From assembly GCA_002897935.1 (NCBI GenBank), contig BDTA01000058.1:5486-69485 (forward strand): a stretch of DNA of 64,000 bases, read 5' to 3'. A model generated the notes under the pieces. The model saw nothing but the letters and a program-made list of their open reading frames with translations, was not told the DNA's origin and searched no databases. Each line of letters begins with the position of its first letter. Position 1 is the first letter of the stretch. The translations under genes and the position numbers were made by a program. The stretch comes from a bacterium BMS3Abin08. Lineage in GTDB: Bacteria > Nitrospirota > Thermodesulfovibrionia > Thermodesulfovibrionales > JdFR-85. Positions 3,310 to 38,773 of this stretch are shown here, piece by piece.

Positions 3310-5058
3310 TTACCCGTCGATCAGGTCTTCATTTATGTTAAAACCGTACTTCTTAAGCTTACGCACTACGGTAGAATGATCAACTCCCAGTAAACGGGCA
3401 GCTTCCCTTGTAGTCTTTTTTATGGATAAGACATGGGCCAGGAGCTTTTTTTCAACCATGGCACGGGCCTGTTCTAAAGGCATTATGCCTTTAACCTGAA
3501 TCATGGAACTGTCACTTGTCTCCTGCTGATAGATATTGTGGGGTAAATGGTATGGCTGAAGCACCTCTTCATCACTTATGATAACCATCCGCTCAATTAC
3601 ATTTTGCAATTCCCGGACATTGCCCGGCCAGTGATAGGATTCCATAAACTGTATGATTTCGGGAGAAAAGGTCTTGGACTGATTAAACTTGTTATTATAA
3701 TTCCGCACAAAGTGCCAGGCCAGCGGAAAGATATCCTCCCTCCGGGTCCTGAGAGGAGGAATTTCAATAGGCACCACATAAAGACGGTAGAACAAGTCTT
3801 CACGGAAATCACCGTCTTTCACCATTTTCTTCAGGTTTTTGTTTGTGGCTGCCAGGATACGTACATTCAGCTTAACAGGGCTCACACCTCCGACCCGCAT
3901 GATTTCAAAATCTTCGATAACCTTAAGAAGTTTCACCTGACAACTGAGGGGTAACTCACCTATTTCATCGAGGAAAATCACGCCCTGATTGGCAAGTTCG
4001 AATAGTCCCGGCTTACCTTCCCTGGAGGCATTGGTAAACGCCCCTCTCACATAACCAAAAAGCTCGGTTTCAAACAGGTTCTCGGGAATTGCTCCACAAT
4101 TAACGGGAATAAACGGACCACATCTGCGGGCGCTCAGCCGGTGGATAAGCCGGGCCATCACCTCCTTGCCCGTACCGCTCTCCCCTTCCAACAATACCGT
4201 CGTATCAACCTGGGCCACCCTGGCGATAAGGTCTAAAACCCCCCGCATAATCCGGTTTTCAGCTATAATCTCACCTCCGGTAATCTGCAAAATACGTGCA
4301 TCCTCGGGAGTTGACAGGTACATGGCCATCAGGCGGGATACCTCATCCTTGAGTAGTTGCAGTTCCGTAATATCCCGGATATGAATAATAGTTTGTGCAA
4401 TGTTTCCCTGAGACATTACAGGTGTGCCTGTTACGTAAATTTCATTACCCTGTTTAAGTTTGCCCATACTGGTGATACTCTTCTTCAGCTGCTGTACCAA
4501 CCGGACAACCTCCTGGATGGTGTGCAAACAAACATGGGTTTCACCGTCGATCTCTTCCACTTTTCTGTTTAAAATGGATTCTCCTTTGAGCCCTGTTATC
4601 CTGCTGAAACTGCTGTTGACCTTGGCAATACGGCAATTTTCAAGAATAATGATACCGTCATAGAAGCTCTCCATTACCGATTCCAGTGTCTGGGGCATAT
4701 CTAAAGAAGAAGCCGGAGCTGTAATGTTTATCTGCGAATCGGTTGATTCGTCAAAAAGATACATTCTGCCGGCAAGTTTTCCATTACACTGAAAAGGCGC
4801 TTTGTATAAGATTAGCTCTTTATCCAGAAGTTTCTGTTTTGTGAAATTCGCACCATTGTTATTCCCGTTTAAAAAACAACCGACCTGTGAGTCGGCAGGT
4901 TTCCCAAGTGCACTCTTTGCTTTAATCCCGAGAATATCTTCAGCCTTCCCGTTAATGAACACAATCCTTCCCTCTACATCCGTGAGAACCAACCCGCAGG
5001 TTGCCCCTTCAACGATATCCGGAAGTACCGTCATATCAAATGATTTGAAAAATGCCAT
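3310..5058 (-). CDS. sigma-54-dependent transcriptional activator with N-terminal PAS domains and C-terminal Fis-type HTH
   Basis: 582 aa. Walker A GESGTGKE. GAFTGA-type loop present as GAFTNA. ESELFGY-like ETELFGY. The motifs FLDEIGELP and RVGG place it in the NtrC AAA+ family. C-terminal HTH TTREAARLLGVDHSTVVRKLKKYG. No receiver domain. Confidence 0.85.
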   Translation of the reverse strand: MAFFKSFDMTVLPDIVEGATCGLVLTDVEGRIVFINGKAEDILGIKAKSALGKPADSQVGCFLNGNNNGANFTKQKLLDKELILYKAPFQCNGKLAGRMYLFDESTDSQINITAPASSLDMPQTLESVMESFYDGIIILENCRIAKVNSSFSRITGLKGESILNRKVEEIDGETHVCLHTIQEVVRLVQQLKKSITSMGKLKQGNEIYVTGTPVMSQGNIAQTIIHIRDITELQLLKDEVSRLMAMYLSTPEDARILQITGGEIIAENRIMRGVLDLIARVAQVDTTVLLEGESGTGKEVMARLIHRLSARRCGPFIPVNCGAIPENLFETELFGYVRGAFTNASREGKPGLFELANQGVIFLDEIGELPLSCQVKLLKVIEDFEIMRVGGVSPVKLNVRILAATNKNLKKMVKDGDFREDLFYRLYVVPIEIPPLRTRREDIFPLAWHFVRNYNNKFNQSKTFSPEIIQFMESYHWPGNVRELQNVIERMVIISDEEVLQPYHLPHNIYQQETSDSSMIQVKGIMPLEQARAMVEKKLLAHVLSIKKTTREAARLLGVDHSTVVRKLKKYGFNINEDLIDG

Positions 5059-5332
5059 GGTCGTAATATTTAATACAAATCCATCGATTGATACCTGCTG
5101 CTACCTGCATGATCCTGTTGATCTTTTCATAAACAGGGAATAAGAGAAGTCACTGAGAGGTATACGGCATGTTAAGCTTAGATCATAAAAGTGAAAGCAG
5201 GGCTGTACCTGTAATTGCTGCATCACTATTGCCTCCTATTTAAACCATACCACAAAAACATACCGTGGTTCAAGAGAGTTGCCGGCCTATGCCTTCCTTA
5301 TCCGGCCATAATTCCACAATCCGGCAGGGGTT

Positions 5333-6043
5333 CTAATACATCAGCATAATGCCCATTATAATTAAAACTAAGAAAAGAGCCTTTTTATATCTTTCCTCGC
5401 TCAACCTTTTGATCCCGTAAATACCGCATAGCATCCCGGTTATCATTACGGGAATTAGTTTCAGGAAGGTCATAGCAATGGCAGACGTTATATTACCACT
5501 GACAAGATGAAACAAAAGCACCAGTATACTGGTGCTGAAAATGAAGAGGTTTAACGATGCTACAACCTCCATTTTGGGCCATTCCCTGTTTGACATATAA
5601 AGGACGGCAGGGGGACCCGTTGTATTATATGCACCCCCTAATGTTCCGGCAAGCACCCCTAATATGTACGCTGTCCAGGCCGGCATCCTGTAGGGAACCC
5701 TCATAATGAAGAGCGAGTACAGGGCGTAAACAATGAGGAACACGCCCAGTATCGACTTCATTAAATCATCACTGAATTCGTTAAGAAGAAAAATTCCTAT
5801 TGGAATCCCGAAGACGGCACCTGTAATAAGTGGAGCGATTTTCCTGAAGTCAAATCTTACCCTGAATCGAAATGTCAGGATCCCGGATATTAACGGCAGA
5901 AAAAGGGCTATCAGCGGCGCTACAAACTTTATATTCAGAAAAAGCAGGAGGAGCGGCATCCCGATCAAAACAAAGGCAAACCCAAACATCCCCTGTAACA
6001 GGGAGGCGATAAATATTACCCCTCCAATATAAATTATCTCCAT
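5333..6043 (-). CDS. TauE/SafE-family (DUF81) anion exporter-like membrane protein
   Basis: 236 aa and polytopic, with about 7-8 hydrophobic helices. Glycine-rich helices (GMFGFAF, GAVFGIPIG, GTLGGAYNTTGPP) are typical of the DUF81/TauE family. Confidence 0.7.
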   Translation of the reverse strand: MEIIYIGGVIFIASLLQGMFGFAFVLIGMPLLLLFLNIKFVAPLIALFLPLISGILTFRFRVRFDFRKIAPLITGAVFGIPIGIFLLNEFSDDLMKSILGVFLIVYALYSLFIMRVPYRMPAWTAYILGVLAGTLGGAYNTTGPPAVLYMSNREWPKMEVVASLNLFIFSTSILVLLFHLVSGNITSAIAMTFLKLIPVMITGMLCGIYGIKRLSEERYKKALFLVLIIMGIMLMY

Positions 6044-6172
6044 AGATAGTGGAAGAATAAAATGCCGTACACAGCTATGACTGCCTCGATGAGGACATCA
6101 AATCGAGCATTTATCCTTACAGTACACTAAAATTCAATTCAGAATGTAATCACTTACCACACTGTGACAGTT

Positions 6173-6589
6173 TTAGAAGGCGAGGAATCCATCGGAGTCC
6201 AGAGCTAAATCTATGAGTGTGGCAGCTCCCGTAATCTTTGCCTGCGGGATTAAATCATCCTCTTTCAGGCCCTTGTTGGCAAAACTCTGGGAACAGACCT
6301 GGAACTCGATCCCGGATTCAACAGCCTCCCGGAGTCTCTGTTTCAAGGTAGGTTTTCCCGGTTTGGTGTCAGGTTCTCTATCAACTGCACCTTTAACCAT
6401 TAGATCAACCCCATCCTGCACACAGTATAAAATCGTCCGGCTGTTGGCCGTTGCAGCAATCGTAGCAAACATGAGGGCTGAACGGGCTGTAGCAGGGGCA
6501 TTCAACCCGGATGTACAAACCACGAGAAACAGTGGTTCCACTTTTTTCTGTTCTCTATCATGAGGTAATGATACCAGTTCATTTTGCAT
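6173..6589 (-). CDS. DsrE/DsrF-like sulfur-relay family protein
   Basis: 138 aa. The beta-alpha-beta start FLVVCTSG and the later YCVQDGVDL and FQVCSQS resemble the DsrE/DsrF fold family. Assignment is by motif recall only. Confidence 0.55.
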   Translation of the reverse strand: MQNELVSLPHDREQKKVEPLFLVVCTSGLNAPATARSALMFATIAATANSRTILYCVQDGVDLMVKGAVDREPDTKPGKPTLKQRLREAVESGIEFQVCSQSFANKGLKEDDLIPQAKITGAATLIDLALDSDGFLAF

Positions 6590-6756
6590 ATTGTCCTCCT
6601 TATATTATTGCTAAGCAAGATGGACTCGTAAAAAGTCCATCTTACCGTTTCAGGATGGCTAAGTAAAAATTCGATATACAGGGAGTAGTGGTGTCGTCCA
6701 GGCGGAGGCATTGGGCGTACCCGCTACGACGCAGGAGATCGATTTTTTGCGAGCCA

Positions 6757-7302
6757 TCAAGCAAGTCTTCTCTTTGAAAACTCATTCGATAACTTAACCG
6801 GTTTAATCATTGTCTGTCCCACCGGAGAAATAGCTAACGCCTGTTCACATATCTCCTCAAGTTCTTCCAGCGCAGCTTTGCTCTTCACAAAAACCTTTGT
6901 TCTTATTTCGTTGAACCCGGGTGTTGAATCTGTACCGGAGGGTTTCTCTTTTGCAAGAAAGGCAGGAATATCAACGTCACCCTCAAGTTCAATTTCCAGT
7001 TTCTCTATCTGTATATCCTTCATTGTTGCAAGAAAAACAAATACTATACTCAGACACGCTCCATACGCACTGAGTAAAAGGGCCATAGGATTTGGAGCAC
7101 TATCAGAACCTCCAAGTGAACAAGGTTCGTCCGCCAGGACTTTAAAGTCCTTAACAGCCGTCTCTATTTTAAAACCACCCCTCCAAACTGATTTTGCCTT
7201 TGTTACTGTTACACCTAACTCCGGTGATGCCTTTAAAACATCCACCAGTTTTTTTATTTGCATCTCGTCTAAACTGTTTAACATGCTCTGTGGTCTCCTC
7301 AA
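6757..7302 (-). CDS. OsmC/Ohr-family protein
   Basis: 181 aa. Contains GGSDSAPNPMALLLSAYGACLS and a C-terminal ISPV motif characteristic of OsmC-like proteins. Confidence 0.7.
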   Translation of the reverse strand: MRRPQSMLNSLDEMQIKKLVDVLKASPELGVTVTKAKSVWRGGFKIETAVKDFKVLADEPCSLGGSDSAPNPMALLLSAYGACLSIVFVFLATMKDIQIEKLEIELEGDVDIPAFLAKEKPSGTDSTPGFNEIRTKVFVKSKAALEELEEICEQALAISPVGQTMIKPVKLSNEFSKRRLA

Positions 7303-7320
7303 CGTGTCTTTATTTTCTCA

Positions 7321-7367
7321 ATATATATATATATATAGTCTGTTTATGAACCAAATTATGAACCAAA
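7321..7367. repeat. (AT)8.5 microsatellite followed by a perfect tandem 12-mer duplication (ttatgaaccaaa x2)
   Basis: Read directly: atatatatatatatata at 7321-7337, then ttatgaaccaaa at 7344-7355 and again at 7356-7367. The region lies in the leader between the sigma-54 promoter and the OsmC start codon. Confidence 0.9.
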
Positions 7368-7369
7368 CT

Positions 7370-7715
7370 TACGGTGTCACCTCTGAAATAAATTCAGGAC
7401 AGACTCTGACATTATGCGCCCCGAAACCTCCCGGGGTAGTGTTTCAGGGAGTATCCGTACCGACCTCAATCCTACTAAGCAAAGTTTATGCCATACTACT
7501 ATTATTTTTTTAACACCCTTTATTGTAAACACTCTTTTATTTTGAACATAATCTAAACGGGCTGTTGCCCAAACCATAAATTGTTACTCCTGAAAAAAAT
7601 CAGGGTAGGCCCTGAACCCTGTGCCCCGAAGGCTCTCGGGGTATTGTTTCATGGTCTCTCAGCTCATTAGTTTTTATTAGATTTCCCGAACTTAATTCGG
7701 GATTCAGAATGACGG
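7370..7715. repeat. hairpin-module repeats (ccccgaa..cggggta and cctgaa..ttcagg modules; attcgggattcagaatgac module)
   Basis: 7418-7450 and 7620-7652 are copies of the 2735-2768 module. 7681-7712 (tttcccgaacttaattcgggattcagaatgac) matches 32711-32741 and the reverse complement of 52524-52552. Confidence 0.6.
7478..7493 (-). promoter_or_regulatory. sigma-54 (-24/-12) promoter for the OsmC/DsrE-like/TauE operon
   Basis: The reverse complement reads TGGCATAAACTTTGCT. GG and GC have exactly the consensus spacing of TGGCAC-N5-TTGCW. It lies about 175 nt upstream of the OsmC ATG (7302). Confidence 0.6.
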
Positions 7716-7921
7716 CAGGGACATTTTCCTGTTTGGGCAACAGACTGTAAAGTAAAAACAGGAGCGCATTGAGGCATCTTTTTCCAACTGATTACTCATT
7801 ATTTGGTGTGTTATTACACCATTACAATGATACTTAGGTGCTGATTTGCACCAACCTATAACCGGCGTTCCGGTTTCTACCGGCAAACTTTCCCTATTAA
7901 TTCAGGAACAATTAACCACAA

Positions 7922-7931
7922 CCCCCCCCCC
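7922..7931. repeat. C10 homopolymer tract
   Basis: Ten consecutive C residues read directly, about 135 nt upstream of the ABC substrate-binding gene. Confidence 0.9.
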
Positions 7932-8064
7932 TGGTATGAATGATGCATGTTTTACATACGCAACAAATACCTAATACAATAGAAACAAAGCTGGCAGCAA
8001 CAGTCCGAGGTTATTAAATTATAAACCAAGAAACAAGAAAAAAACTCATTAGGAGGTAACGAGG

Positions 8065-9180
8065 ATGAAAAAGTTAAGTTATTGTTTGGTTGCTCTCAGT
8101 TGTCTGGCTCTTATTTTGACTATGGGATTCGGGAGCCACTCCAAGGCTGAGGCAGCCGACGCTGTTCACATTAGTTATGGCTACCATCCTTACTGGACAG
8201 GGGGATGGTCGGGCGTTGTTATAAAACACCGGGGACTCTGGAAAAAGTACCTTCCAAAGGGAAGTACCGTAAAATTCGAGGCACACCTTACCGGACCCCC
8301 AATAGTAAACGCCCTTCTGGCCGATAAGATGCAAATCGGCACCATGGGAGACATGCCATCTCTTGTGGCAACAACCAAAAAACGACAGGGGGATATTCGT
8401 CTTGTCAGTGTTCCCATGTTCAGTAACGGTCAGAACTGTAACCTGTTGGTTGTACGGAAGGATGCCCCTGATTTTAAAAGTCCCATGGAGGCACTCAAGT
8501 GGTTGAATGGGAAAAAGGTCGCTGTACACAGAGGAACCTGTGCCAACAGATTCCTGGATTCTATTCTGGAAAAGACCGGGGTAAAGCCCGCCGAGCGTCT
8601 TGATATGACGATTGAGGTCATTGCCTCGAACTTTGAGGCCGGCAAGCTGGACGGAGCCGCAATGTGGGAACCCCATGCCCGCAGGATTGTGAATCAGGGG
8701 TTTGCCAAATATGCAGCCACGGGGGCTCCCTGGGGTGAAACAGATGCGGATTTCACATTAATGCGGCAGGACTTTATTGAAAAACATCCGGAAGCGGCCA
8801 AGGGCTGGATACTGGCTGAAATAGAAGCAGAAAGAATCATGATTAATGAACCTATGGCCGTGGCCAAGATGGTAATGGAAGAGACCCAGGGCTATTCGGA
8901 AAAAACGCTCTGGGAGGCCCTTTACGAGGTGCATCCGGCATCCATAGGAGGAGATCCGGTCAAGTATGTTGCAAAGATGGTCTTCGACAAAGATGTTCTC
9001 AAGCTTATGGACCTTGGTTATGCATTTCTCCACAGGATGAAGGTCATCAGGACCGGCTCAATCCCTGAGGGTGCTATTAATGACAAACCGCTGAGGGCAG
9101 CCCTTAAGGAGTTAGGGTTACCTTACCAGGCCGTTGGTGAGATCAAGGGGTTACCGGCATCTGCCTACAAAGGTAATTAG
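8065..9180 (+). CDS. ABC transporter substrate-binding protein (NMT1/SsuA/TauA-like, NitT/TauT family)
   Basis: 371 aa with signal peptide MKKLSYCLVALSCLALILTMGFGSHSKAEA. Strong RBS aggagg 8 nt upstream. Followed by NitT/TauT-type permease and ATPase genes. Confidence 0.8.
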   Translation: MKKLSYCLVALSCLALILTMGFGSHSKAEAADAVHISYGYHPYWTGGWSGVVIKHRGLWKKYLPKGSTVKFEAHLTGPPIVNALLADKMQIGTMGDMPSLVATTKKRQGDIRLVSVPMFSNGQNCNLLVVRKDAPDFKSPMEALKWLNGKKVAVHRGTCANRFLDSILEKTGVKPAERLDMTIEVIASNFEAGKLDGAAMWEPHARRIVNQGFAKYAATGAPWGETDADFTLMRQDFIEKHPEAAKGWILAEIEAERIMINEPMAVAKMVMEETQGYSEKTLWEALYEVHPASIGGDPVKYVAKMVFDKDVLKLMDLGYAFLHRMKVIRTGSIPEGAINDKPLRAALKELGLPYQAVGEIKGLPASAYKGN

Positions 9181-9199
9181 CAAGTAAAACTACACTACG

Positions 9200-9230
9200 G
9201 CACAAGGGGGCTTGACAAGCCCCCTTGTGC
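9200..9230 (+). other. intercistronic 14-bp-stem hairpin after the binding-protein gene
   Basis: gcacaagggggctt-gac-aagcccccttgtgc is a perfect inverted repeat with no following T-run. More likely an mRNA stabiliser or attenuator than a full terminator. Confidence 0.5.
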
Positions 9231-9275
9231 ATACATAACCTATTGAACAAAGGGGAGGTTTCTAAGTTATATATT

Positions 9276-10208
9276 ATGAGTATGAACTTTATCTTTCCAA
9301 TAGTCGTTATTTCGGCCTTCGCTATATGGATATTCTACTATCGCCAAAAGAAACTCGCATTCTTCTCAGGCATCTCTACCGGCGAACAGATTAGAAAAAC
9401 ACTGACCAGCCAAAGATTCTGGCTGCTTATATTAGGGTTTGTCCTGACCATAGGGTTCTGGTATGTTGCGGTCTACTGGCTGCCCTTTAAGGCCTTTCAC
9501 CGTTTACCGGGACCTGACGAAGTTATCACCGAATGGCTGAGCCGGGACCCCTATTACGGCATCTCCATCTACACGAAAGAGTACTATGTACACATTCTTT
9601 ACAGCACCTACCGGGCGACAACCGCTTTTGTATTGGCCACAGTCCTTGGCGTGCCTTTTGGATTGATTATGGGATGGAACAGGAGATTTTATGAATACTC
9701 CTTCCCACTGGTGGAGATGATCAGACCCATACCCCCTCTGGCCTGGGTCCCTCTCGCAATCCTTATGCTCCCCGGGTCTGAACCGGCCGTTATCTTTGTA
9801 ACGTTTCTGGTAGCATTCTTCGTTACGGCTCTTAACACGCTCCTGGGGGTTCAATCCATTGACGAGGCCTATTTCCGTGCAGCCCGATGCCTCGGTGCAA
9901 GTTCAAAAGAAATCCTTTACGATGTTGTGATTCCAGGCTCTCTTCCTTTTATCTTTACCGGTTTGCAGATTGCCATGGGAGCGGCCTGGTTTTCTCTTGT
10001 AGCAGGGGAAATGATTGCGGCACAATACGGGTTGGGATACCTTATCTGGCAGGGATATTCTCTCGTTAAGTACCCAACCATAATCATAGGGATGTTGACG
10101 TTAGGCATTATTGGATATATCAGCAGTGTAGCAATTCGTTATGTTGGCAAAAAGTTGATGGCATGGCGGGAACAGGACCTGAGCGGATCCGGCGCTACTT
10201 ATGAATAG
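9276..10208 (+). CDS. ABC transporter permease 1 (NitT/TauT family)
   Basis: The EAA-loop region SIDEAYFRAARCLGASSKEILYDVVIPGSLP is typical of SsuC/TauC-type permeases. Start chosen at MSMNF; the track start at 9225 lies within the hairpin. Confidence 0.8.
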   Translation: MSMNFIFPIVVISAFAIWIFYYRQKKLAFFSGISTGEQIRKTLTSQRFWLLILGFVLTIGFWYVAVYWLPFKAFHRLPGPDEVITEWLSRDPYYGISIYTKEYYVHILYSTYRATTAFVLATVLGVPFGLIMGWNRRFYEYSFPLVEMIRPIPPLAWVPLAILMLPGSEPAVIFVTFLVAFFVTALNTLLGVQSIDEAYFRAARCLGASSKEILYDVVIPGSLPFIFTGLQIAMGAAWFSLVAGEMIAAQYGLGYLIWQGYSLVKYPTIIIGMLTLGIIGYISSVAIRYVGKKLMAWREQDLSGSGATYE

Positions 10209-10241
10209 TTAATTCAGAGAAATGAGATAAGAGAGTTAAAA

Positions 10242-11099
10242 ATGTCGACTTTAAGTCTAAAGAACTATAACAATGGAGAAAAAAGAGGTGCACTCTCAAT
10301 CCGGAATGCAACTAAAATCTACGACCCGGAAGGGGTGCATGTGGTTGCACTGGAGGAGTGCTCTCTGGAGGTCAAGGCAGGTGAATTCGTGGCGGTAGTC
10401 GGACCATCAGGGTGTGGCAAAACGACCTTGCTCAATATCATGGCCGGCTTTGATTCTCTGACCCGTGGAGAAATACATCTTGACGGTGAATTGTTAGCTG
10501 CACCCGGCGTCAAGCCCAATCCCGGACCTGACAGGGTGGTTGTCTTTCAGCAGGGAGCCCTTTTCCCCTGGAAGACCGTCCTTGAAAATGTCATTTACGG
10601 CCCGGTAATACAAAAAAAGATGTCCAAAGACGAGGCAATGAAGACCGGCCGGGAGAGGCTTAGCCGGGTCGGGCTGGGACAGATAGAAAATGTATATCCC
10701 GGCCAACTCTCCTCCGGTATGCAGAGGAGAGTCGAGATTGTGAGGGCGCTTATAAACAATCCCCTCGTTCTCTTATTGGACGAACCATTCAGGGGCATGG
10801 ATTCGGTGACCAAAAGTGCCAGTCATGCATGCCTGCTGGAACTTTATGATATATTTCACAAAACGATTTACTTTATTACCCATGACCTGGAGGAGGCCAT
10901 CTTCCTGTCCGACACCGTTGCGGTTATGACTACACGGCCCGGCAAGATCCGATTGACAATAGATGTGGACCTGCCACGCCCGAGAAACTATCGCATGCTT
11001 TCTTCCGACAAGTTCCTGAAATTGAAGGCGATGGCCAAGGATGCGGTCCATGAGGAGGCCTTGAAGGCATTCCAACGTGGTGAAAGGGAGTTGGCATAA
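10242..11099 (+). CDS. ABC transporter ATP-binding protein 1
   Basis: Walker A GPSGCGKTT, signature LSSGMQRR, Walker B LLLDEPF. Confidence 0.85.
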   Translation: MSTLSLKNYNNGEKRGALSIRNATKIYDPEGVHVVALEECSLEVKAGEFVAVVGPSGCGKTTLLNIMAGFDSLTRGEIHLDGELLAAPGVKPNPGPDRVVVFQQGALFPWKTVLENVIYGPVIQKKMSKDEAMKTGRERLSRVGLGQIENVYPGQLSSGMQRRVEIVRALINNPLVLLLDEPFRGMDSVTKSASHACLLELYDIFHKTIYFITHDLEEAIFLSDTVAVMTTRPGKIRLTIDVDLPRPRNYRMLSSDKFLKLKAMAKDAVHEEALKAFQRGERELA

Positions 11100-11100
11100 T

Positions 11101-11946
11101 ATGGATGAGATGAACACCTCAAAAACAGACCAGGATACAGGATTGACCGTTAAAAGAGGTACGTCATTAAGCATGAAACTGAAGAAGAAGCTCCTGAACA
11201 GGACCAACATAAACGGTGCCGTCGCCATTTTGGGCTTTTTTGTATTATGGTACATCCTCGTAGTGATTCAGGCTCCGTTTATGAAACATATCCCCACACC
11301 TATAACAGTCTCAAAGACATTCCTTGTATTTCTTCAAAAGAAACTCTTCTGGATAAGCCTGTGGTTCAGTACAAAAAGGGTATTCTATGGGTTTGCCGTT
11401 GCCATGATCCTGGGTATCCCCCTGGGTCTTGCCATGGGATGGAGTCAAAAATTTAAAGACCTGGCCTTCCCGGTGTTCGAAGTCTTACGTCCAATCCCCC
11501 CCTTAGCCTGGGTTCCCGTCTCCATCCTTTTTTGGCCAACCAACGAACTCAGCATTATCTTCATAACATTCATCGGCGCTTTTTTTACCATTGTGCTGAA
11601 TGTGTTACGGGGGGTGGCATCTATCGACAAAGAACTGTACCGTTCCGCTATCTCTCTGGGAGCCAAACCACGGCATATATTCTGGAAGATCATTCTGCCT
11701 GCGAGTATCCCGTCCATTGCCACCGGTATGATGGTAGGCATAGGTATTACCTGGAACGTTGTGATAGCCGCCGAGATGATCGCCGGCAACAGGGGTATAG
11801 GACGGCTTACATGGGAAGGTTATCTTGCCGGCGATACACCAACGATCATAGTAGGCATGATCACCATAGGTTTTGCCGGGTGGCTTTCAAGCGCAATCGT
11901 CAAGATCGTTGCAGACAAAATGATGCCTTGGCGCAAACTATTTTAG
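11101..11946 (+). CDS. ABC transporter permease 2 (NitT/TauT family)
   Basis: Paralogue of 9276-10208 (shared LRPIPPLAWVP and SIDKELYRSAISLGAKPRHIFWKIILPASIP). Start taken at the ATG 2 nt after the preceding stop. Confidence 0.8.
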   Translation: MDEMNTSKTDQDTGLTVKRGTSLSMKLKKKLLNRTNINGAVAILGFFVLWYILVVIQAPFMKHIPTPITVSKTFLVFLQKKLFWISLWFSTKRVFYGFAVAMILGIPLGLAMGWSQKFKDLAFPVFEVLRPIPPLAWVPVSILFWPTNELSIIFITFIGAFFTIVLNVLRGVASIDKELYRSAISLGAKPRHIFWKIILPASIPSIATGMMVGIGITWNVVIAAEMIAGNRGIGRLTWEGYLAGDTPTIIVGMITIGFAGWLSSAIVKIVADKMMPWRKLF

Positions 11947-11965
11947 AATATATCGAGGTGTAAAA

Positions 11966-12829
11966 ATGGATACGGTTAAAGAAAAAAAGGGACATTTGAA
12001 GGCTGTTAAACTCATCAAACGCTTCCATCAGGCTGGAAGAGAGCCTCTGGTGGTCTTAAAGGATTGTTCCCTATCTGTTGAACCGGGAAAGCTGAATGTA
12101 TTGATCGGAACTTCCGGTTGTGGCAAATCCACTCTGGCAAACATTCTGGCCGGATACGATCGTCCAAATTCCGGACGGATAACGATGGATGGGACCCCGC
12201 TGAACGGCTCCGGCCCCGACAGGCTGATGGTTTTTCAGGAAACCGCCCTATGGCCCTGGATGACCGTCATTGACAACGTGATTTTCGGCCCTACTGTCCG
12301 TGGTGAAATGTCGAAAAAGAAGGCCAAGCTGGAAGCCACCCGGATTCTTGAACTGGTCGGACTTCAGGACTTCTGTGAAAAATACCCTGCTCAGCTCTCA
12401 GGCGGTATGCAACGCAGAGCCGAACTGGCACGGGCACTGATCAACAATCCCAAGGTCATGATAATGGATGAGCCCTTCAGGGGGCTTGATGATATGACGC
12501 GTGAGCTTATGCAGGAGTACTATCTCAAGATTTTTGATGAGAGCCATTGCACCACCCTCTTTATCACCGCTGAAATTGAGGAGGCCATCTTCCTTGCCGA
12601 TCGTATCCTCATAATGACCTATCTCCCTGGAAGTATCAAAACGGTTATCGAGGTAGACCTGCCCAGACCCCGTGACTATAGGGTCCTTACTTCAAAACGC
12701 TATCTGGAGATTAAAGGGGAAACACTTGAGTGTCTGCACGAGGAAGGACAAAAATCTTTCGGTGATGAATGTAATATAGCAAGCAGTATGGTGGCTGAAT
12801 TCAGACGGTTAGCCAAAGAGGTAGAGTGA
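11966..12829 (+). CDS. ABC transporter ATP-binding protein 2
   Basis: Walker A GTSGCGKST, signature LSGGMQRR, Walker B MIMDEPF. Confidence 0.85.
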   Translation: MDTVKEKKGHLKAVKLIKRFHQAGREPLVVLKDCSLSVEPGKLNVLIGTSGCGKSTLANILAGYDRPNSGRITMDGTPLNGSGPDRLMVFQETALWPWMTVIDNVIFGPTVRGEMSKKKAKLEATRILELVGLQDFCEKYPAQLSGGMQRRAELARALINNPKVMIMDEPFRGLDDMTRELMQEYYLKIFDESHCTTLFITAEIEEAIFLADRILIMTYLPGSIKTVIEVDLPRPRDYRVLTSKRYLEIKGETLECLHEEGQKSFGDECNIASSMVAEFRRLAKEVE

Positions 12830-12851
12830 AGGTTCAGGGATGTTTTGCTAT

Positions 12852-12936
12852 TGGTGCGAGAGAGGGGAGTTGAACCCCTACGGGAAATCCCACTGGATCC
12901 TAAGTCCAGCGCGTCTGCCGGTTCCGCCACTCTCGC
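12852..12936 (-). tRNA. tRNA-Leu (anticodon TAG), CCA encoded
   Basis: The reverse complement is GCGAGAGTGGCGGAACCGGCAGACGCGCTGGACTTAGGATCCAGTGGGATTTCCCGTAGGGGTTCAACTCCCCTCTCTCGCACCA. It has a 7-bp acceptor stem, an anticodon stem CTGGA/TCCAG with loop CTTAGGA, a long variable arm and a GGTTCAA T-loop. Confidence 0.9.
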
Positions 12937-13227
12937 TTAGGAGTGCTACCACAAATTTTAATGCATTTTACGGTATTCCGTCAATTATTCTGTTACAGGA
13001 GTTCCACAATTTGACTGGTTTTATCCCGCCCCTATCCCCTTCCCCCGGAGTGGCGGCTTAAAATCAAGGGACTGAAAGAAACCATAGTGATTTACCCATC
13101 GATCCTCCGATACCAATATAGACTCCTACAGAAAACGGCTTTCTCCTGAATCCCCTCTGAATTGCCTTTATTATCCTTGTTTTTCTCTGTTATAATTACT
13201 TATTGCTGGATTGGGGGGGATTATACT

Positions 13228-14190
13228 ATGAAGTTTTGGCTTGGGCTCATCCTCGGAGCCCTTATCCTCGGGGCCATCGTGTTTCTTTCCGGCTGCGACT
13301 CGGGTGGGGAGCGGAAGGAGATTGACTTGAGCGCCCGGATCAGCAATGCCGATTTACGGAAACTTGCTCAGGCCAAGAAAGATGTTGACGTGTTGTGGTT
13401 CGGCTTTGACCTGCGAGCCGGTCCGAAAGAGGATGCCCGGCAGTACATACCGTTTCTGAAATATCTGCAAAGATCAACCGGCTATCGATTTAATCTCCGA
13501 TTCACACCGAAAGGCGGCAGTATTGCAAATGAACTTGGCAGGGGTGTGGTGCAGTTCGCAGCCGTTGGAGCGGGCACCTACATCTTGGCACACGCCAAAT
13601 ACGGGGTCATCCCGGTCGTACGCGGACTCAACTCACAGGGAAAGGCACAATACCGCTCCGTGATCGTCGTACGGCCCGACAGTCCCATCCGGAAGATTGA
13701 AGACCTGCGGGGCAGGAACTTCGCCTTCGGGAGCATCACCTCCACGCAGGGGTATCTTATTCCAGGGATTATTCTGCTCAAGCACGGCATTACACTAAGA
13801 GATCTCGGATCTTACCGCTTTACGGGTTCACACCGCAACTGTGCCAAGGCAGTAATATCCCATCGATTCGATGCCTGCGGGATGCAGGACACAATGGGTA
13901 AGAAGCTGGCAAAGGAAGGGCTGCTCCGCATCATATACACATCGAAACCCTATCCATCCAGCGGCATTGCGGCCAACAGGGACGTCCCCTCCGTGGTTCT
14001 GTCCAGGGTCAAACAGGCCCTGCTTGATTTTCAGCCCAAGGGGCGCGATGCGGCGGGCCTCTACAATTGGGACAAGACAGAGATGCCACGGGGGTTTATA
14101 GAGGCCCATGACGGGGATTACGCGGAACTTCGCAAATGGGCAAAGAAACTCGGGTATATTCCCGACATCAACCCTGAGACGGTGCCGTGA
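13228..14190 (+). CDS. PhnD-like periplasmic binding lipoprotein (phosphonate/phosphite-type SBP fold)
   Basis: Start at MKFWLGLILGALILGAIVFLSGC (lipobox LSGC), with a G-rich RBS upstream. Contains FGSITSTQGYLIP and IYTSKPYPSSGIAA, typical of the PhnD family. No ABC permease or ATPase is adjacent. Confidence 0.7.
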   Translation: MKFWLGLILGALILGAIVFLSGCDSGGERKEIDLSARISNADLRKLAQAKKDVDVLWFGFDLRAGPKEDARQYIPFLKYLQRSTGYRFNLRFTPKGGSIANELGRGVVQFAAVGAGTYILAHAKYGVIPVVRGLNSQGKAQYRSVIVVRPDSPIRKIEDLRGRNFAFGSITSTQGYLIPGIILLKHGITLRDLGSYRFTGSHRNCAKAVISHRFDACGMQDTMGKKLAKEGLLRIIYTSKPYPSSGIAANRDVPSVVLSRVKQALLDFQPKGRDAAGLYNWDKTEMPRGFIEAHDGDYAELRKWAKKLGYIPDINPETVP

Positions 14191-16607
14191 GACTTCAAAC
14201 CAAAATCATCCTGCTGATCTTCTTCATTGCGGTAAGCATCGGTCTGTTGTCTTCACTGTTGGTCAGCCGCCTCATGTTCAAGGCATTGGAGAAGGAGATG
14301 GAACAGGAAGGTCTAATCCTTGCCCAGGCACTCGCGGAACATATCACTCTCGATGTAATCAACCACGATATTCTTTCCACCCGTGAAGCCCTCCGTAATA
14401 TTGTGAGGCGCACGGAGGACGTGGACTTTGCATACGTCATCGGATTCGACGGAAGTATATTCACATACTCATTCGAGGGTGGTTTTCCAAGGGCATTGCT
14501 GAAGAAAACGCATGAAGTGCTCCACGGGGAAGCCATTGACAGGTACACAACCGGGGAAGGCCCTATTGTGGAAATAGGCTACCCGCTCATCAACGGCATG
14601 CAAGCACGAATCTACGTAGGGGTGAATGAGAGGAATATATACAGCCAAATCGACAACATGCGTAATCGCATAATATACCTCACTTTCAGCATAGTGCTGC
14701 TTGGTATTTTGTTGGGCATTATTCTGAGCCGTCGTATTGTCAGGCCCCTCGAACGGTTGTCGGAATCCATGCGGGCCTTCGGTAAAGGGGAAGTTGAAGA
14801 TGAGATTGTTTTGAGCGGTAAAGGGCTGGAAGTGAATGAACTGATGCGCTCCTTCAATAATATGATATCCGGACGTAAACGGGTGGAGGAGGAATTACGC
14901 AGAGTCAACCGTGCGCTTAAGACGCTCAGTGGATGCAACCAGGCGGTATTGCGTGCCGGGGAGGAGGCGGACCTGCTGCGTGACATATGCCGGATCATAG
15001 TGGAATACGGCGGCTATCGCATGGCATGGGTCGGCTTCGCCGAGCAGGACGAAGACAAGACCGTACGTGTCGTGGCACAGGCAGGATACGATGATGGGTA
15101 TCTCGGTACGGTGAACATAACATGGGCGGATACGGAACAGGGGCGTGGTCCCACAGGCACGGCCATCCGGACCGGCAAACCCTGCATTGCAAAAAACATC
15201 CTGACCGATCCTGAATACACCCCCTGGCGGGCTGAAGCGACCAGACGCGGCTATGCATCATCGCTATCTCTCCCCCTGACCGCAAACGCACAGCCCTTTG
15301 GTGCGCTGAACATATATGCCGCGGAACCGGATGCCTTTGACACAGAGGAAGTGAAGCTGCTGACGGAACTGTCCGACGACCTGGTGTTCGGCATCAAGTC
15401 GCTGCGCGCGCGAATTAAGCACAAGCAAACGAGGGAGGAGAAAGAAGAGATACATGCCCAACTCCTCCACGCGCAGAAAATGGAAGCCGTTGGAACATTA
15501 ACCGCGGGGATAGCCCACGACTTCAATAATCTGCTGACAGCCATCATTGGTTACAGCGAGATCCTGTTGAACCGTCTTGAAGAACGCAACCCCCTGCGCA
15601 AGGACATTGAACAGATCAAGAAAGCCGGGGAACGGGCCGCCTCGCTGACCCGTCAGCTCCTGGCCTTCAGCCGCAGGCAGGTGCTCCAAACTAAGGTACT
15701 GAACCTCAATGCCCTGGTTGAGGGTATGGATAACATGCTTCGGCATCTTATCGGTGAGGACGTTGACCTAATTACCGTTTTAGGGCCGGGGCTGGCGTGT
15801 GTAAAAGCCGATCCGGGCCAGATCGAACATGTCATCATGAACCTCGCCATCAACGCCCGCGACGCCATGCCCGAAGGCAGAAAACTCACTATCATGACGG
15901 AAAACGTGACCCTGAACAAAGTCCATTGCTCTACCATCCCCGAGGCCCGACCCGGTGACTTTGTCTGTCTGTCCGTTGCGGACTCGGGTGTCGGCATGGA
16001 TAAAGAAATCCTCCAGCACATCTTTGAACCCTTCTTCAGCACAAAGGAAGCTGGAAAGGGGACCGGCCTCGGCCTGTCCGTTGTCTACGGCATTGTTAAA
16101 CAGCACGGCGGGTGGGTAAATGTTTACAGTGAGCCCGGACAAGGCTCGATATTCAAGGTCTACCTGCCGGCTTTTTTCGCGACTGCGGACGACAAAACCG
16201 AAGAGACAGTCCCGTTACAGGGGCTTCGGGGCAACGGCGAACGGATTCTCCTTGTTGAGGATGAAACAGAGGTCCTTGAATTTGCCGTGAGGGTGCTTGC
16301 TGAAAACAACTACTCCGTATTTAAGGCCGCAAATGCAAAAGAGGCGATGGATATCTTTGAGAGAGAAAAGGGGGATTTCCATGTTGTCTTCAGCGACGTG
16401 GTACTGCCTGATAAAAACGGTCTTCAGTTGGTTAACCAATTACTCTCTCACAAACCCGGACTCCGGGTCTTGCTGAGCAGCGGGTACGCGGACCGGAAAA
16501 CGCAATGGCCCCTTATACGCAAAATGGGATTCCGGTTTCTACAGAAACCTTACGCCTTGAGCGATCTGCTTCTGGCAGTCAGAGAGGTTTTAGGGCAGGC
16601 CGGATAA
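14187..16607 (+). CDS. hybrid sensor histidine kinase (2 TM sensor, HAMP, GAF, HisKA, HATPase_c, C-terminal receiver)
   Basis: 806 aa. The GTG start overlaps the upstream stop (GTGA). H-box [11 protein letters not shown]-boxes DSGVGM and GTGLGLS, receiver ILLVEDE...[11 protein letters not shown]. Confidence 0.85.
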
Positions 16608-29265: not shown

Positions 29266-31317
29266 TTACAGTAAAGCGATCAGAGGAGCAATAACGAGAG
29301 ATACAACACTCATAAGTTTGATAAGTATATTCATTGAAGGACCGGAAGTGTCCTTGAATGGATCTCCAACAGTGTCCCCAACAACCGCAGCCTTATGGGC
29401 ATCCGATCCCTTACCTCCGAGATTCCCCTTCTCAATATACTTCTTGGCGTTGTCCCATGCGCCACCACCATTGGACATCATCAGGGCAAGCATCACACCT
29501 GTCGCTGTAGCTCCGGCAAGCATACCTCCAAGGGCTGCCGGCCCTAGGACAAAACCTATCACGACAGGGCTTATAACTGCAGTCAGCCCAGGCACTATCA
29601 TCTCTTTAAGGGCGGCTGTTGTGCTGATATCAACACATTTCTTGGAGTCCGGCTTCACGCCGGGCTTTCCTTCGAGAAGCCCCGGGATCTCTTTAAACTG
29701 ACGTCTTATCTCATTCACCATCTTGAAGGCTGCCCTTCCCACAGCAGTCATGGTGAGGGCGGCAATAAAGAACGGTAAGACCGCACCTATGAGTAGCCCT
29801 ATCACAACCAGTGGGTCTGTAAGGATAATGGTCAGGTGTTGCATCCCCTCGGCCGCTCTTTTTGCATTTACACTCTGTGTATAAGCTGAGAAAAGGGCAA
29901 GGGCGGTGAGGGCTGCAGAACCTATAGCAAAACCCTTTCCGATAGCTGCAGTAGTGTTACCAAGTGCATCAAGGCTATCGGTTATCTCTCTTGTATCCTC
30001 GCCAAGCCCGGCCATCTCGGAGATACCACCGGCATTATCTGCAATAGGACCATAGGCATCAACACTCATGGTGATACCTATGGTACCCAGCATGCCGACT
30101 GCAGCGATACCGATACCATAGAGTCCTGCAACCAGGTCAGCCACATAGATCGCAGCACAGATACCAAGCACAGGAAGTGCCGTACTCCCAAACCCGACAG
30201 CAAGACCTGTGATAATATTTGTTCCAGCCCCTGTCAGACTTGCTTCTGCTATTCTCCTGATAGGCTTGCCGGAGGTATAATATTCGGTGAGAAGACCGAT
30301 AACTATTCCACCGAAACAACCTGCCACGACTGCCCAGAAGACACCATTATTTACATCCATGGACGAGACTGCAAAATATGAGATGACAAGGAATATAGCG
30401 GCAGCTATAAATGTTGAGTATCTGAGGGCTGCTGCAGGGTCCATCTTCTCAAGTATCCTCATTGCGACGATACCGAGCACAGAGGCGACAATACCCACCA
30501 CTGCAAGGAGTACGGGAAGGGCCATCAGATGTAGTGCAGACCCGAGACCGGCAACCTTTGAACCTGCTACCAATCCCGCGGTAGCCCCTATAGCAATGGT
30601 TGCAATTATGGAATTCACATAAGATTCAAAGAGGTCGGCACCCATACCTGCAACATCACCCACATTGTCACCCACATTGTCCGCAATAACACCGGGGTTA
30701 CGGGGGTCGTCCTCCGGAATACCCGCCTCAAGCTTACCAACAAGGTCGGCACCAACATCAGCAGCCTTTGTATAGATACCACCACCGACACGCATAAACA
30801 GCGCTATAGATGATGCACCCATACCAAAGGCATTAATGACAAATGCAGTCTGGGGGTTGCGGGCATACAGATAATAAAATATACCCACTCCAATGAGACC
30901 GACTCCAGCCACTGAAAGTCCCATAACTGCGCCACCATTGAAGGCGACAGAGAGTGCCTTTGCCGTATCAGGCTTATATCTGTTGGCAGCCTCAGCAGTT
31001 CTGGTATTCGCCCTTGTGGCGGCGTTCATACCAAGGTATCCGGCTGCTATTGAGCATAGAGCGCCTGATAGGAATGCAACGGCTGAAGGAAGCCCGAGAT
31101 AAAGATACATGGCAATGAAGACGATGACCACAAAGATAGAAAGGATCGAATACTGCCTCTTGAGGTAGGTCATTGCACCTTCGTGTATCATTGCCCCTAT
31201 CTCCCGCATGACCTCGTTACCGGCAGGCTTCTTGGCAACTGCTGCAAGCAGGAACAGTGCTATAATCACTCCAGCGGCACCGAACAGGGGAGCAAAATTA
31301 GTTAAACCTTCCATCAA
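29266..31317 (-). CDS. hppA: membrane-integral pyrophosphate-energised ion pump (K+-dependent-type signature)
   Basis: 683 aa. Contains the DNVGDNVGD motif (present as [23 protein letters not shown]), [21 protein letters not shown] and [12 protein letters not shown]. The GNTTAA form (Ala rather than Lys) is the K+-dependent signature. Confidence 0.9.
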
Positions 31318-31479
31318 TCATACCTCCTTAGAGATTTTTAATATATTAAGGATTTTAATATATTCCGGCAAAATGCCTTAACTTTTTATCTGAACAACTA
31401 TCTCTATTAATCTCTTATGTATCCTGACTGAATATACCCGTCGGAAATGTACTCCTTCAGGATATCCTGTGCCTGCATA

Positions 31480-32592: not shown

Positions 32593-32628
32593 TTACTCCT
32601 CCTCATTTAAAATTCAAATATCAAAATG

Positions 32629-32782
32629 CAAAATTGATGCACTCGTAAAAAGTCCTGATTGTCACCCTGAACTTGTTTCAGGGTCTCATAACTTCTTGAT
32701 TTATATAGCTTTCCCGAAGTTAATTCGGGATTCAGAATGACAGAATAGGGTATTTCTGATTTTTTACGAGACTGTCAAAATT
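32629..32782. mobile_element. family-B MITE-like element inside the qmoB-qmoC spacer
   Basis: CAAAATT-gatgcactcgtaaaaag ... ttttttacgagactgt-CAAAATT. Near-identical (in reverse orientation, apart from a roughly 50-bp insertion) to 52482-52684. Confidence 0.7.
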
Positions 32783-32837
32783 ATGGAATTTATTTTAATT
32801 AAAAAATTTCCTCAATTCTAATTTTTGAATTTTTTAT

Positions 32838-35042: not shown

Positions 35043-35045
35043 GAT

Positions 35046-36311: not shown

Positions 36312-36483
36312 GTTATTTCCTCCATAAATATTATTATTCCCCATAAACTTTAAACTTTAAAGTTTATCAATATACGATATATATGTATCAACCTAAACTT
36401 TTAAATAAACTAATAAATTTAATAAATCCAACCTCCTTGACCACAGGGTATTCCCCGACACTTCTCGGAAGTGCGGGGTATTC

Positions 36484-37023: not shown

Positions 37024-37025
37024 AC

Positions 37026-38616: not shown

Positions 38617-38636
38617 AGCGAATTCCTTTCCAATGG

Positions 38637-38720: not shown

Positions 38721-38748
38721 ACTTGTTAGGTCTATCTAATAAATCTAT

Positions 38749-38773
38749 GGGGGTGACCTGAAAGGTCACCCCC
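38749..38773 (-). terminator. hairpin 30 nt downstream of aprA (terminator or attenuator)
   Basis: gggggtgacc-tgaaa-ggtcaccccc has a 10-bp GC-rich stem. On the minus strand it is followed by atagatttatt. Confidence 0.5.

Follow-up and report, generated by a model that had tools for sequence, protein, structure and literature searches.

A candidate bidirectional sigma-54 regulon joining an OsmC-like/DsrE-like protein pair and TauE to a sulfonate-type ABC importer in a member of the Nitrospirota

In the bacterium BMS3Abin08, a stretch of 64,000 nt (contig BDTA01000058.1 of assembly GCA_002897935.1, positions 5,486–69,485), which is called the window throughout, carries genes for an OsmC-like protein, a DsrE-like protein, a TauE/SafE-family membrane protein and a sigma-54 activator with two PAS domains one after the other on the minus strand, facing an operon for an ATP-binding cassette (ABC) importer on the plus strand. 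A first-pass annotation made from the sequence alone had proposed the four minus-strand genes as one regulatory unit. Our analysis bears out the genes but not the extent of the unit, which was drawn too small, as an enhancer, a divergent sigma-54 promoter and the importer have to be added to it. We propose, with a confidence slightly above even, that the whole represents a bidirectional sigma-54 regulon that serves to take up a sulfur compound and to handle it by thiol chemistry, and in which the PAS activator would drive both operons.

The -24/-12 element in front of the OsmC-like gene, which had already been picked out and described as correctly spaced, was confirmed, the reverse complement of 7478–7493 being TGGCATAAACTTTGCT. 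In the window the strict pattern TGGCAYN5TTGCW has two matches against 0.12 expected (two matches were obtained in 1 of 100 shuffles), and both are intergenic and adjoin a sigma-54 activator gene. The end of the element is 175 nt away from TTG 7302, the start of the longest open reading frame (ORF) of the OsmC-like gene, and 193 nt away from ATG 7284, which is the likely start as it is preceded by a GAGGAG ribosome-binding site and is the one used by gene callers.

For comparison, about 90 related loci (numbered with the letter L) were assembled from contig neighbourhoods reached through homologues of the DsrE-like protein, and one genome per species was scanned, giving 80 loci (1.08 Mb) which were annotated by tblastn with the window proteins. 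These relatives are mostly Nitrospirota of the Thermodesulfovibrionia. When regions of 300 nt were searched for GG and GC at the right spacing with no more than two mismatches to TGGCACN5TTGCW, a sigma-54 promoter was found in 37 of the 49 OsmC-upstream regions of related loci, orthologues and paralogues taken together, compared with 0.035 expected per 300 nt. It stands 40–116 nt before the OsmC-like start, mostly at 40–70 nt, and the equivalent promoter reads TGGCACAAACTTTGCT in L009 and L018 and is also present in L019. Two archaeal loci that were scanned, L049 and L092, have no sigma-54 promoter upstream of the OsmC-like gene, which is expected because these organisms lack sigma-54. Such conservation amounts to strong phylogenetic footprinting for the predicted promoter and supports the earlier suggestion that the OsmC-like and DsrE-like genes are under sigma-54 control.

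Binding of the PAS activator to 7494–7700 had been put forward as a check. Our alignment of the divergent spacers of the window, L009 and L019 yielded two conserved palindromes lying outside that stretch, site A (TTGGTGTGTTATTACACCAT) and site B (TAGGTGCTGATTTGCACCAA), which are predicted to be its enhancer and are also present as a pair in L011. The predicted sites have the consensus wTGGTG-N6-TGCACCA, and GGTG-N8-CACC matches the window only twice, at 7805–7820 and 7837–7852, 32 bp apart. Palindrome pairs spaced exactly 31 bp were found in 11 of the 80 loci, all of them of the PAS-activator/importer type, the background of single sites in these loci being 0.057 per kb. Wherever both genes are on the contig (9 of 9 loci), the pair lies between the PAS-activator and binding-protein genes; in L019 and L021, whose contigs do not include the activator gene, it adjoins the binding-protein gene.

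On the importer side, the candidate sigma-54 promoter TGGTATGAATGATGCA is located about 80 nt from the enhancer pair and 118 nt before the importer start codon. L018 and L021 share this exact sequence and L019 has a similar one, and four window-type loci carry either TGGTATGAATGATGCA or TGGTATAAAATGTGCA. Eight loci with a co-directional arrangement have TGGCAYAYAARATGCT 52–74 nt after the enhancer pair, and a sigma-54 promoter was present 52–80 nt after the pair in all 12 cases examined, the window included. The best reading would be one enhancer common to two divergent sigma-54 promoters. A C10 tract (7922–7931), the only G/C run of at least nine in the window, abuts the -24 element of the importer-side promoter and is a C8 tract in three other assemblies of the species (L001, L002 and L003); the difference could come from phase variation in the distance of the promoter from the enhancer, or the assembly may be wrong here.

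A synteny search for OsmC, DsrE and TauE, which had been suggested before, showed synteny of all four genes in the nearest lineages. L009 and L010, whose DsrE-like proteins are 75% identical to that of the window, have the layout of the window including the divergent importer, while L007 has the importer genes and those for the OsmC-like protein, the DsrE-like protein and TauE in a single co-directional series, and in L011 genes for TusA, the OsmC-like and DsrE-like proteins, the PAS activator, an importer that includes two additional DsrE-like genes, and TauE lie side by side. In L013 the OsmC-like, DsrE-like and TusA genes follow a GAF-type sigma-54 activator, and in one archaeal locus they stand behind a GAF-PAS regulator. 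In 53 of the 80 loci the DsrE-like gene immediately follows the OsmC-like gene in the same orientation; a sigma-54 AAA+ activator is encoded within 3 kb in 49, and directly upstream in 33 of the 61 with enough flank. Neighbours include TusA in 21 loci, a binding protein in 14, TauE in 11 and a PAS-type activator in 10–11.

These arrangements resolve into two modules. Module A, the usual setting of the pair, consists of a GAF-AAA+-HTH_8 activator (Pfam on five activators) with the OsmC-like, the DsrE-like and sometimes the TusA gene, and 25 of 33 GAF-activator loci contain a palindrome, TTGCA-N3-TGCAA (0.019 expected), which was not found in the window spacer. In module B the PAS activator faces a binding protein, in some cases a DsrE-like protein, permease, ATPase, permease, ATPase and TauE, and the PAS activator, enhancer, importer and TauE are kept together in all relatives. 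Three of the window proteins are orthologues of their module B counterparts (TauE, which ends the importer operon in related loci, 52–58% identical; binding protein 40–46%; activator AAA+ domain 63–67%), whereas the OsmC-like protein is only 41–44% identical to module A copies. In addition, three metagenome-assembled genomes contain a module A locus that is separate from their window-type locus (L018 and L071, L021 and L074, L020 and L062). These identities and the coexistence of both loci indicate that the window carries a paralogous OsmC-like/DsrE-like copy joined to module B. Ancestrally, the pair appears to have been served by a GAF-type activator, and the window copy seems to have been recruited to the PAS regulon. 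The window version is therefore an evolutionarily derived one, with the paralogous pair fused to the PAS/ABC/TauE set, a three-gene cassette lost (see below) and the spacers stretched by repeats.

Two further observations concern these modules. A third, single copy of the palindrome, resembling TTGGTGCTTTTCTGCACCA, was seen in L023 (3620), L036 (1677), L039 (10435), L073 (3172) and L084 (10401), at the 3' end of the activator gene and facing the DsrE-like gene of module A, and might act as an additional operator or else as a hairpin terminating transcription in both directions. Genes for a URO-D/MtaA-like methyltransferase, a corrinoid (B12-binding) protein, RACo activase, MtrH and CobW flank the pair in L017, L048, L011 and L099, and their recurrence in bacteria and archaea could indicate a connection with the metabolism of methylated sulfur or corrinoids.

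In the window about 310 bp separate the enhancer from the OsmC promoter, compared with about 115 bp for L009 and only about 75 bp for L019, because hairpins resembling repetitive extragenic palindromes (REP) and other inserted DNA intervene. The hairpins belong to a dispersed CCCCGA-N6-TCGGGG family with copies at 2737, 2987, 7419, 7624, 26115, 28545 and 57393, three of which have a longer 5' flank in common. Two of them, in the leader of the OsmC-like gene and between enhancer and promoter, were considered as activator sites and rejected, since copies occur elsewhere and none is present in the orthologous spacer of L009. Inverted repeats of 28 nt (7557–7584 and 7721–7748) bracket about 190 bp, resembling a miniature transposable element. 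The RNA fold of the OsmC leader was not significant (z = -0.5), and an Rfam scan of the window returned a tRNA-Leu alone and no riboswitch for this long leader. Outside coding sequence, minus-strand hairpins followed by T-runs were found only at 7600–7615 and, weaker and with a 5-bp stem, at 7558–7571, both upstream of the sigma-54 promoter.

It could be argued from this that the four genes are not one unit, that the sigma-54 motif is dead after the repeat insertions, that the genes are transcribed from internal sigma-70 promoters and that the activator acts on the importer only. The long distance in comparison with the 75–115 bp of the relatives would fit, as would the long gaps between the genes (167, 129 and 274 nt), a conserved sigma-70-like promoter before the activator gene, a strain variant (L004) without the OsmC-like gene and the promoter upstream of the DsrE-like gene, and the fact that in most lineages the enhancer of the PAS activator serves the importer operon only. 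However, the sequence at 7478–7493 is intact and near-consensus, enhancer-binding proteins work across several hundred bp, and L009 and L019 hold the same enhancer pair midway between two divergent sigma-54 promoters. The spacer also lacks a GAF-type enhancer, and sigma-70-like matches are not above chance in a generic scan of the region (11 against 10.8). We therefore consider separate units decidedly unlikely.

The activator itself shows the features of a receiver-less bacterial enhancer-binding protein (bEBP), as had been annotated. Pfam recognises two PAS regions, Sigma54_activat (PF00158, E = 2.8e-65), AAA_lid_14 and HTH_50/HTH_8, and no receiver. Walker A (GESGTGKE) and Walker B (FLDEI) motifs are present, and the loop at residues 339–344 is the variant GAFTNA, which retains F and T; orthologues have GAFTSA (L018), GSFTGA or GSFSGA. 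The C-terminal helix-turn-helix (HTH) domain and the palindromes near the promoters, its predicted sites, likewise fit this class. In PAS2, His175-x-Cys177 is largely conserved (His in 9 and Cys in 8 of 10 orthologues) and might, speculatively, be a ligand or thiol-sensor site.

The activator gene had been listed after the other three in the same unit, and it does follow on the same strand, but it is probably not just another member of the sigma-54 operon, since it has a conserved sigma-70-like promoter of its own. This candidate is the only conserved block in the diverged 274-nt spacer between the TauE and activator genes when the window is compared with L009, and support for it is moderate because it falls below the threshold of the generic sigma-70 scan. 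In the three internal gaps (OsmC–DsrE, DsrE–TauE and TauE–activator) no intrinsic terminator-like site was found. Read-through from the sigma-54 promoter would therefore be possible, although the sigma-70-like promoter would make it dispensable; if it occurs, it would give positive feedback.

Table 1. Features of the OsmC-like/DsrE-like/TauE locus and the divergent importer operon (positions are those of the window).
Feature	Position	Strand	Basis or detail
Receiver-less bEBP, 582 aa, PAS-PAS-AAA+(sigma-54)-HTH	3310–5058	-	Pfam
Candidate sigma-70-type promoter of activator gene	5244–5273	-	TTGAAC-N18-TATGGT with TG extension
TauE/SafE-family membrane protein, 236 aa	5333–6043	-	Pfam PF01925, E = 3.1e-30
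Deletion scar, last 15 nt of lost second DsrE gene	6139–6153	-	GTGATTACATTCTGA, including stop
DsrE-like gene, 138 aa	6173–6589	-	Pfam PF02635, E = 1.6e-16
Long structured OsmC–DsrE spacer, 167 nt	6590–6756	-	14-bp hairpin; RNA fold -47 kcal/mol, z = -3.09
OsmC-like gene, 175 aa	6757–7284	-	Pfam PF02566, E = 4.5e-20; longest ORF from TTG 7302
REP-like hairpin in 5' leader of OsmC-like gene	7418–7445	-	Dispersed CCCCGA-N6-TCGGGG family
Predicted sigma-54 (-24/-12) promoter of OsmC-like/DsrE-like/TauE operon	7478–7493	-	TGGCATAAACTTTGCT, exact TGGCAYN5TTGCW match
Second REP-like hairpin, enhancer–OsmC promoter interval	7623–7650	-	CCCCGA-N6-TCGGGG family
Predicted enhancer (upstream activating sequence) site A for PAS activator	7803–7822		TTGGTGTGTTATTACACCAT, palindrome
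Predicted enhancer site B	7835–7854		TAGGTGCTGATTTGCACCAA, palindrome, 32 bp from site A
Candidate divergent sigma-54 promoter of importer operon	7932–7947	+	TGGTATGAATGATGCA
ABC importer operon	8065–12829	+	Pfam NMT1_2, BPD_transp_1, ABC_tran
TauA/SsuA-like periplasmic binding protein	8065–9180	+	
Importer permeases	9276–10208, 11101–11946	+	
Importer ATPases	10242–11099, 11966–12829	+	

The family assignments made for the three structural genes all hold. The OsmC-family gene matches its Pfam profile (Table 1), and the TauE/SafE-like gene matches PF01925 over its full length (profile positions 3–237 of 237) with 106 bits against a gathering cut-off of 32.6. For the DsrE/DsrF-like protein of 138 aa, the absence of a DsrE fold had been named as a refuting outcome; besides the profile match, an AlphaFold2 model (pLDDT 90.5) found 3mc3 (TM 0.78/0.88), 3pnx, 2qs7, DsrEFH (2hy5), YchN (1jx7) and TusBCD (2d1p) by Foldseek, all strong matches being DsrE, TusD or YchN proteins, and the fold is thus confirmed. 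Cys99 (FQVCSQS) is the sole invariant cysteine in 23 DsrE-like homologues and aligns with the VCVQS cysteine in the active-site region of 3mc3. It is presumably equivalent to Cys78 of E. coli TusD (NICVAA).

The OsmC-like protein is most similar to the NCBIfam model NF041052, 'OsmC-related (seleno)protein', below its cut-off, and its nearest solved structure, 2opl, was deposited as 'Hypothetical protein'. Canonical OsmC/Ohr proteins have a peroxidatic cysteine in helix 1 and a resolving cysteine in CP(V/Y)S. In an alignment of 49 sequences the first position, Cys77, is invariant, but the second is a serine (Ser153, SPVG) in 49 of 49, and an extra loop cysteine is found instead, at position 58 in 43 of the 49 and at position 55 in the window clade. 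Because the resolving cysteine is replaced by serine, the protein is not a canonical two-cysteine peroxidase, and the earlier view of it as thiol-dependent and peroxidase-like has to be revised in this respect. A UxxT motif has been reported for OsmC-like selenoproteins (PMC1088965), and CLTT at the position equivalent to Cys77 in the 2opl homologue agrees with it, which supports Cys77 as the probable redox-active residue.

These data also bear on a possible function in defence against peroxide or thiol-oxidative stress, with the OsmC-like protein as hydroperoxide reductase, the DsrE-like protein as its redox partner and the PAS domains sensing redox state or oxygen. Membership in the OsmC family, weak NCBIfam matches to Ohr and peroxiredoxin models and the JGI/COG label 'predicted peroxiredoxin' of the DsrE homologues would agree with such a role. 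For DsrE-like proteins, however, the name peroxiredoxin is a legacy COG label that is not known to go back to any experiment. There is a regulatory parallel in PexR, an enhancer-binding protein that is reported to control peroxide defence genes (PMC12754779). We regard this function as rather unlikely, given that the serine in place of the resolving cysteine is invariant, that the best family model is a non-peroxidase one, and that the genes nearby encode TusA, further DsrE paralogues, TauE and a sulfonate-type importer instead of thioredoxin/AhpD systems.

Selenium trafficking, in which the OsmC-like, DsrE-like and TusA/YedF-like proteins would handle selenide or selenopersulfide, is a very remote alternative. 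Selenoproteins are known in the OsmC-like as well as in the DsrE-like family (PMC1088965), the best NCBIfam model of the former has selenoproteins in its name, and TusA neighbours score on YedF selenium-metabolism models. All members studied here, however, have cysteine and none selenocysteine, neither selD, yedE nor a selenocysteine insertion sequence (SECIS) context was seen in the window or in the loci inspected, and genes of dissimilatory sulfur metabolism (sat, aprA-like, qmoABC) are present in the host.

In 52 related loci the median distance from the OsmC-like stop to the DsrE-like start is 0.5 nt, and in 47 of them it does not exceed 30 nt, which indicates translational coupling of the two genes. 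The long spacer of the window, at a place where the genes of the relatives overlap or abut, contains no terminator-type T-run. Part of it also joins an alternative upstream gene in L004, a low-coverage strain contig in which (positions 1–1200) a gene like phospholipase D (PLD)/cardiolipin synthase replaces the OsmC-like gene and the promoter before the DsrE-like gene, the homology to the window starting within a few nt of the stop codon of the OsmC-like gene; either the DNA is truly rearranged in this strain or the assembly is chimeric.

Strain variation is also seen between the DsrE-like and TauE genes, where the sister-strain contig L001 has 3,209 extra bp (10439–13647) between flanks that are 99% identical. 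The extra DNA encodes a secreted protein of 507 aa, a membrane protein of 250 aa and a DsrE paralogue of 126 aa. As the last 15 nt of this second DsrE gene are retained in the window, the window form is the result of a deletion. The unrelated contig L099 (7001–10163) contains this cassette too (535 aa, 253 aa, DsrE, DsrE), adjoining a histidine kinase/response regulator pair and genes for TusA and corrinoid methyltransferases. The 507-aa and 250-aa proteins have no Pfam, NCBIfam or PDB match, and the former has about 16 homologues, all unnamed.

The binding protein of the divergent importer has an N-terminus which by eye resembles a signal peptide. Its nearest solved structures are TauA (6ssy, 4.5e-15) and SsuA, but it scores 112 bits against a cut-off of 163.5 for SsuA_fam and 49–60 bits against cut-offs of 304–490 for TauA models; it is related to these families and not an equivalog of either. 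Uptake of an organosulfonate such as taurine, isethionate or an alkanesulfonate might be concluded from this similarity, with sulfite released elsewhere and exported by TauE and the pair buffering sulfite or persulfide by-products, and the definition of TauE as a sulfite exporter comes from C2-sulfonate metabolism (a reference cited in PMC7315123). Yet a desulfonating enzyme is missing both from the window locus and from the annotated neighbours in those syntenic loci that were inspected, and the binding protein remains below both sets of cut-offs. Moreover, related operons place DsrE-like genes between the binding-protein and permease genes, one product having an N-terminal signal-like sequence, and DsrE-like genes inside importer operons point to inorganic or sulfane sulfur and not to carbon-bound sulfonate. 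Organosulfonate uptake is thus rather improbable. Beyond the importer, after the tRNA-Leu (12852–12936), a Phosphonate-bd-type periplasmic protein and a hybrid HAMP-GAF histidine kinase are encoded (13162–16607); a similar pair follows the module in L007, and they may belong to the same sensory neighbourhood.

The OsmC-like protein of the window is identical to proteins of 'bacterium BMS3Abin08/BMS3Bbin06', and marine metagenome assemblies carry the same locus at about 99% identity. A block of dissimilatory sulfur genes at 29266–42567 comprises sat, adenylate kinase, an aprA-like flavoprotein and qmoA/B/C-like genes, as well as two CxxCxxCC proteins and a membrane H+-pyrophosphatase. Since sat, aprA-like and qmoABC genes are encoded, the host, a Thermodesulfovibrionia-type member of the Nitrospirota, has the dissimilatory adenosine phosphosulfate pathway. 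The gene rpoN was not identified among the annotated ORFs of the window. The other strict sigma-54 match (48687–48702, minus strand) lies inside the region 46489–52197. On one side of it are an NtrC-type response regulator and a Tll0287/PAS histidine kinase, on the other a YeiH-family 'putative sulfate exporter', whose ORF has its first possible start about 600 nt downstream of the match.

From the gene content, protein folds, conserved cysteines, promoters, enhancer sites and synteny described above we infer binding of the activator to its sites, co-regulation of the two operons, the kind of substrate and the chemistry as follows. The PAS-PAS-AAA+-HTH activator would be made from its own weak sigma-70-type promoter and would bind to the two TGGTG-N8-CACCA palindromes (7803–7854) in the divergent intergenic region. 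Upon sensing of a signal by the PAS domains it would remodel sigma-54 polymerase at two outward-facing promoters, one of which (7932–7947) would drive the TauA/SsuA-like importer and the other (7478–7493) the OsmC-like, DsrE-like and TauE genes. Conservation lends good support to this architecture of PAS activator, paired palindromes and two divergent sigma-54 promoters. The importer may take in a sulfonate-type anion, that is, thiosulfate, polythionate, an S-sulfonated thiol or an organosulfonate. DsrE/TusA relays carry persulfide or thiosulfonate sulfur and TauE proteins are implicated in the export of sulfite or thiosulfate. In the cytoplasm the DsrE-like protein (Cys99) and the OsmC-like protein (Cys77 and loop Cys55) would form a coupled thiol pair that may bind, transfer or reduce sulfane or thiosulfonate sulfur, a role in handling sulfur intermediates which is suggested by family membership and gene neighbours, and the sulfite or thiosulfate that results would cross the membrane by way of TauE.

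Several points weigh against such a regulon. Neither a rhodanese, a persulfide dioxygenase, SQR nor a desulfonating lyase is encoded in the window locus, and none of these sulfur-converting enzymes was found among the annotated neighbours of the relatives inspected. Activity at the OsmC promoter could be weak because of the distance of about 310 bp and the loop GAFTNA instead of GAFTGA, and the gene gaps given above are long for an operon. The importer-side promoter has three mismatches to the consensus, so that support for it comes from conservation and geometry. Finally, as the pair was probably under a GAF-type activator ancestrally, a paralogous activator encoded elsewhere could be its true regulator.

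The first-pass annotation had placed the combination of OsmC, DsrE and TauE outside the named sulfur-trafficking clusters. In agreement with this, our literature search returned, from the library searched, no paper combining OsmC, DsrE and TusA or OsmC, DsrE and TauE; publications mentioning OsmC and DsrE were mostly selenoprotein or trace-element bioinformatics, and none dealt with the gene pair. The closest functional precedent is the FisR operon, the closest precedent in gene content the CstR/YrkD clusters. FisR is a sigma-54 activator that induces a PDO-SQR-TauE operon for sulfide detoxification (PMC7315123). In Cupriavidus pinatubonensis and Acinetobacter baumannii, as is proposed for the window, a receiver-less bEBP switches on a neighbouring reactive-sulfur operon with a putative sulfite/thiosulfate exporter of the TauE family. 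However, PDO and SQR represent aerobic chemistry, whereas the window has neither and encodes the OsmC-like/DsrE-like pair and an ABC importer instead. Its sensor is of the PAS-PAS type in an organism with sat/apr/qmo.

Among Firmicutes, the cst operon of S. aureus (cstAB-sqr with tauE) and the yrk operon of B. subtilis and B. licheniformis (yrkDEFHIJ) reportedly contain DsrE-type domains, TusA and TauE. Like the window set, these clusters have DsrE-type domains and TauE, there reportedly for sulfane sulfur (PMC9918477, PMC5480029), and DsrE, TusA and TauE are named together in the paper on the yrkD cluster of Bacillus licheniformis (PMC9918477). They differ from the window in having CsoR-family repressors, sigma-70 promoters, a rhodanese and a persulfide dioxygenase, and they are not known to contain an OsmC-like gene or a sulfonate-type importer. 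Conversely, no CstR, persulfide dioxygenase or rhodanese/TusA multidomain sulfurtransferase is encoded within 3310–12829.

With DsrEFH/TusBCD and DsrE3-TusA the window DsrE-like protein has in common the fold and the position of the active-site cysteine, TusA being a neighbour in the loci counted above, but DsrEFH and TusBCD are hetero-hexamers of three paralogues, whereas the window has a single DsrE-like gene paired with the OsmC-like one and no adjacent DsrF/TusC and DsrH/TusB paralogues. The closest structure, 3mc3 from Sulfolobus, is without assigned function. Likewise, OsmC/Ohr thiol peroxidases share the Pfam family and the conserved first cysteine at the peroxidatic position with the window protein, but not the second catalytic cysteine, which is serine in every member of the OsmC-like set and has a different loop cysteine in its stead. 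A last comparison concerns the YTD cluster (DsrEFH type II) of sulfur disproportionators, a DsrE-like and TusA cluster common in Nitrospirota and Desulfobacterota (PMC13490349, PMC13293266), which is composed of a YedE/YeeE-like transporter, TusA, a DsrE-like protein and 2–3 conserved hypothetical proteins (PMC13490349). It has no OsmC-like protein, TauE, ABC importer or sigma-54 control, whereas the window locus lacks YedE/YeeE, TusA and two extra DsrF/H-like hypothetical proteins.

A bolder and still doubtful possibility is that the one-cysteine OsmC-like and the single-cysteine DsrE-like protein constitute a previously unrecognised two-protein sulfur relay or reductase. This pair would be translationally coupled in most genomes, often accompanied by TusA and under GAF- or PAS-type sigma-54 activators, and it would occur widely among Nitrospirota and also in Desulfobacterota, Anaerolineae and Hydrothermarchaeota. 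In the lineage of the window it would work together with an ABC importer of a new class that takes up an inorganic sulfonate-type anion (thiosulfate or polythionate).

In sulfate reducers and disproportionators of the Nitrospirota, the uptake and cytoplasmic routing of thiosulfate, polythionates, polysulfide and sulfite are poorly resolved. Our analysis defines for them a conserved, uncharacterised set consisting of a coupled pair, a sulfonate-type importer with TauE and two dedicated sigma-54 activators with predicted sites. If the relay is real, it would supply a cytoplasmic step, so far missing, by which sulfur enters dissimilatory metabolism or disproportionation, an OsmC-fold partner would join the DsrE/TusA trafficking network, and the widespread annotation of both families as 'peroxiredoxin' would be corrected.

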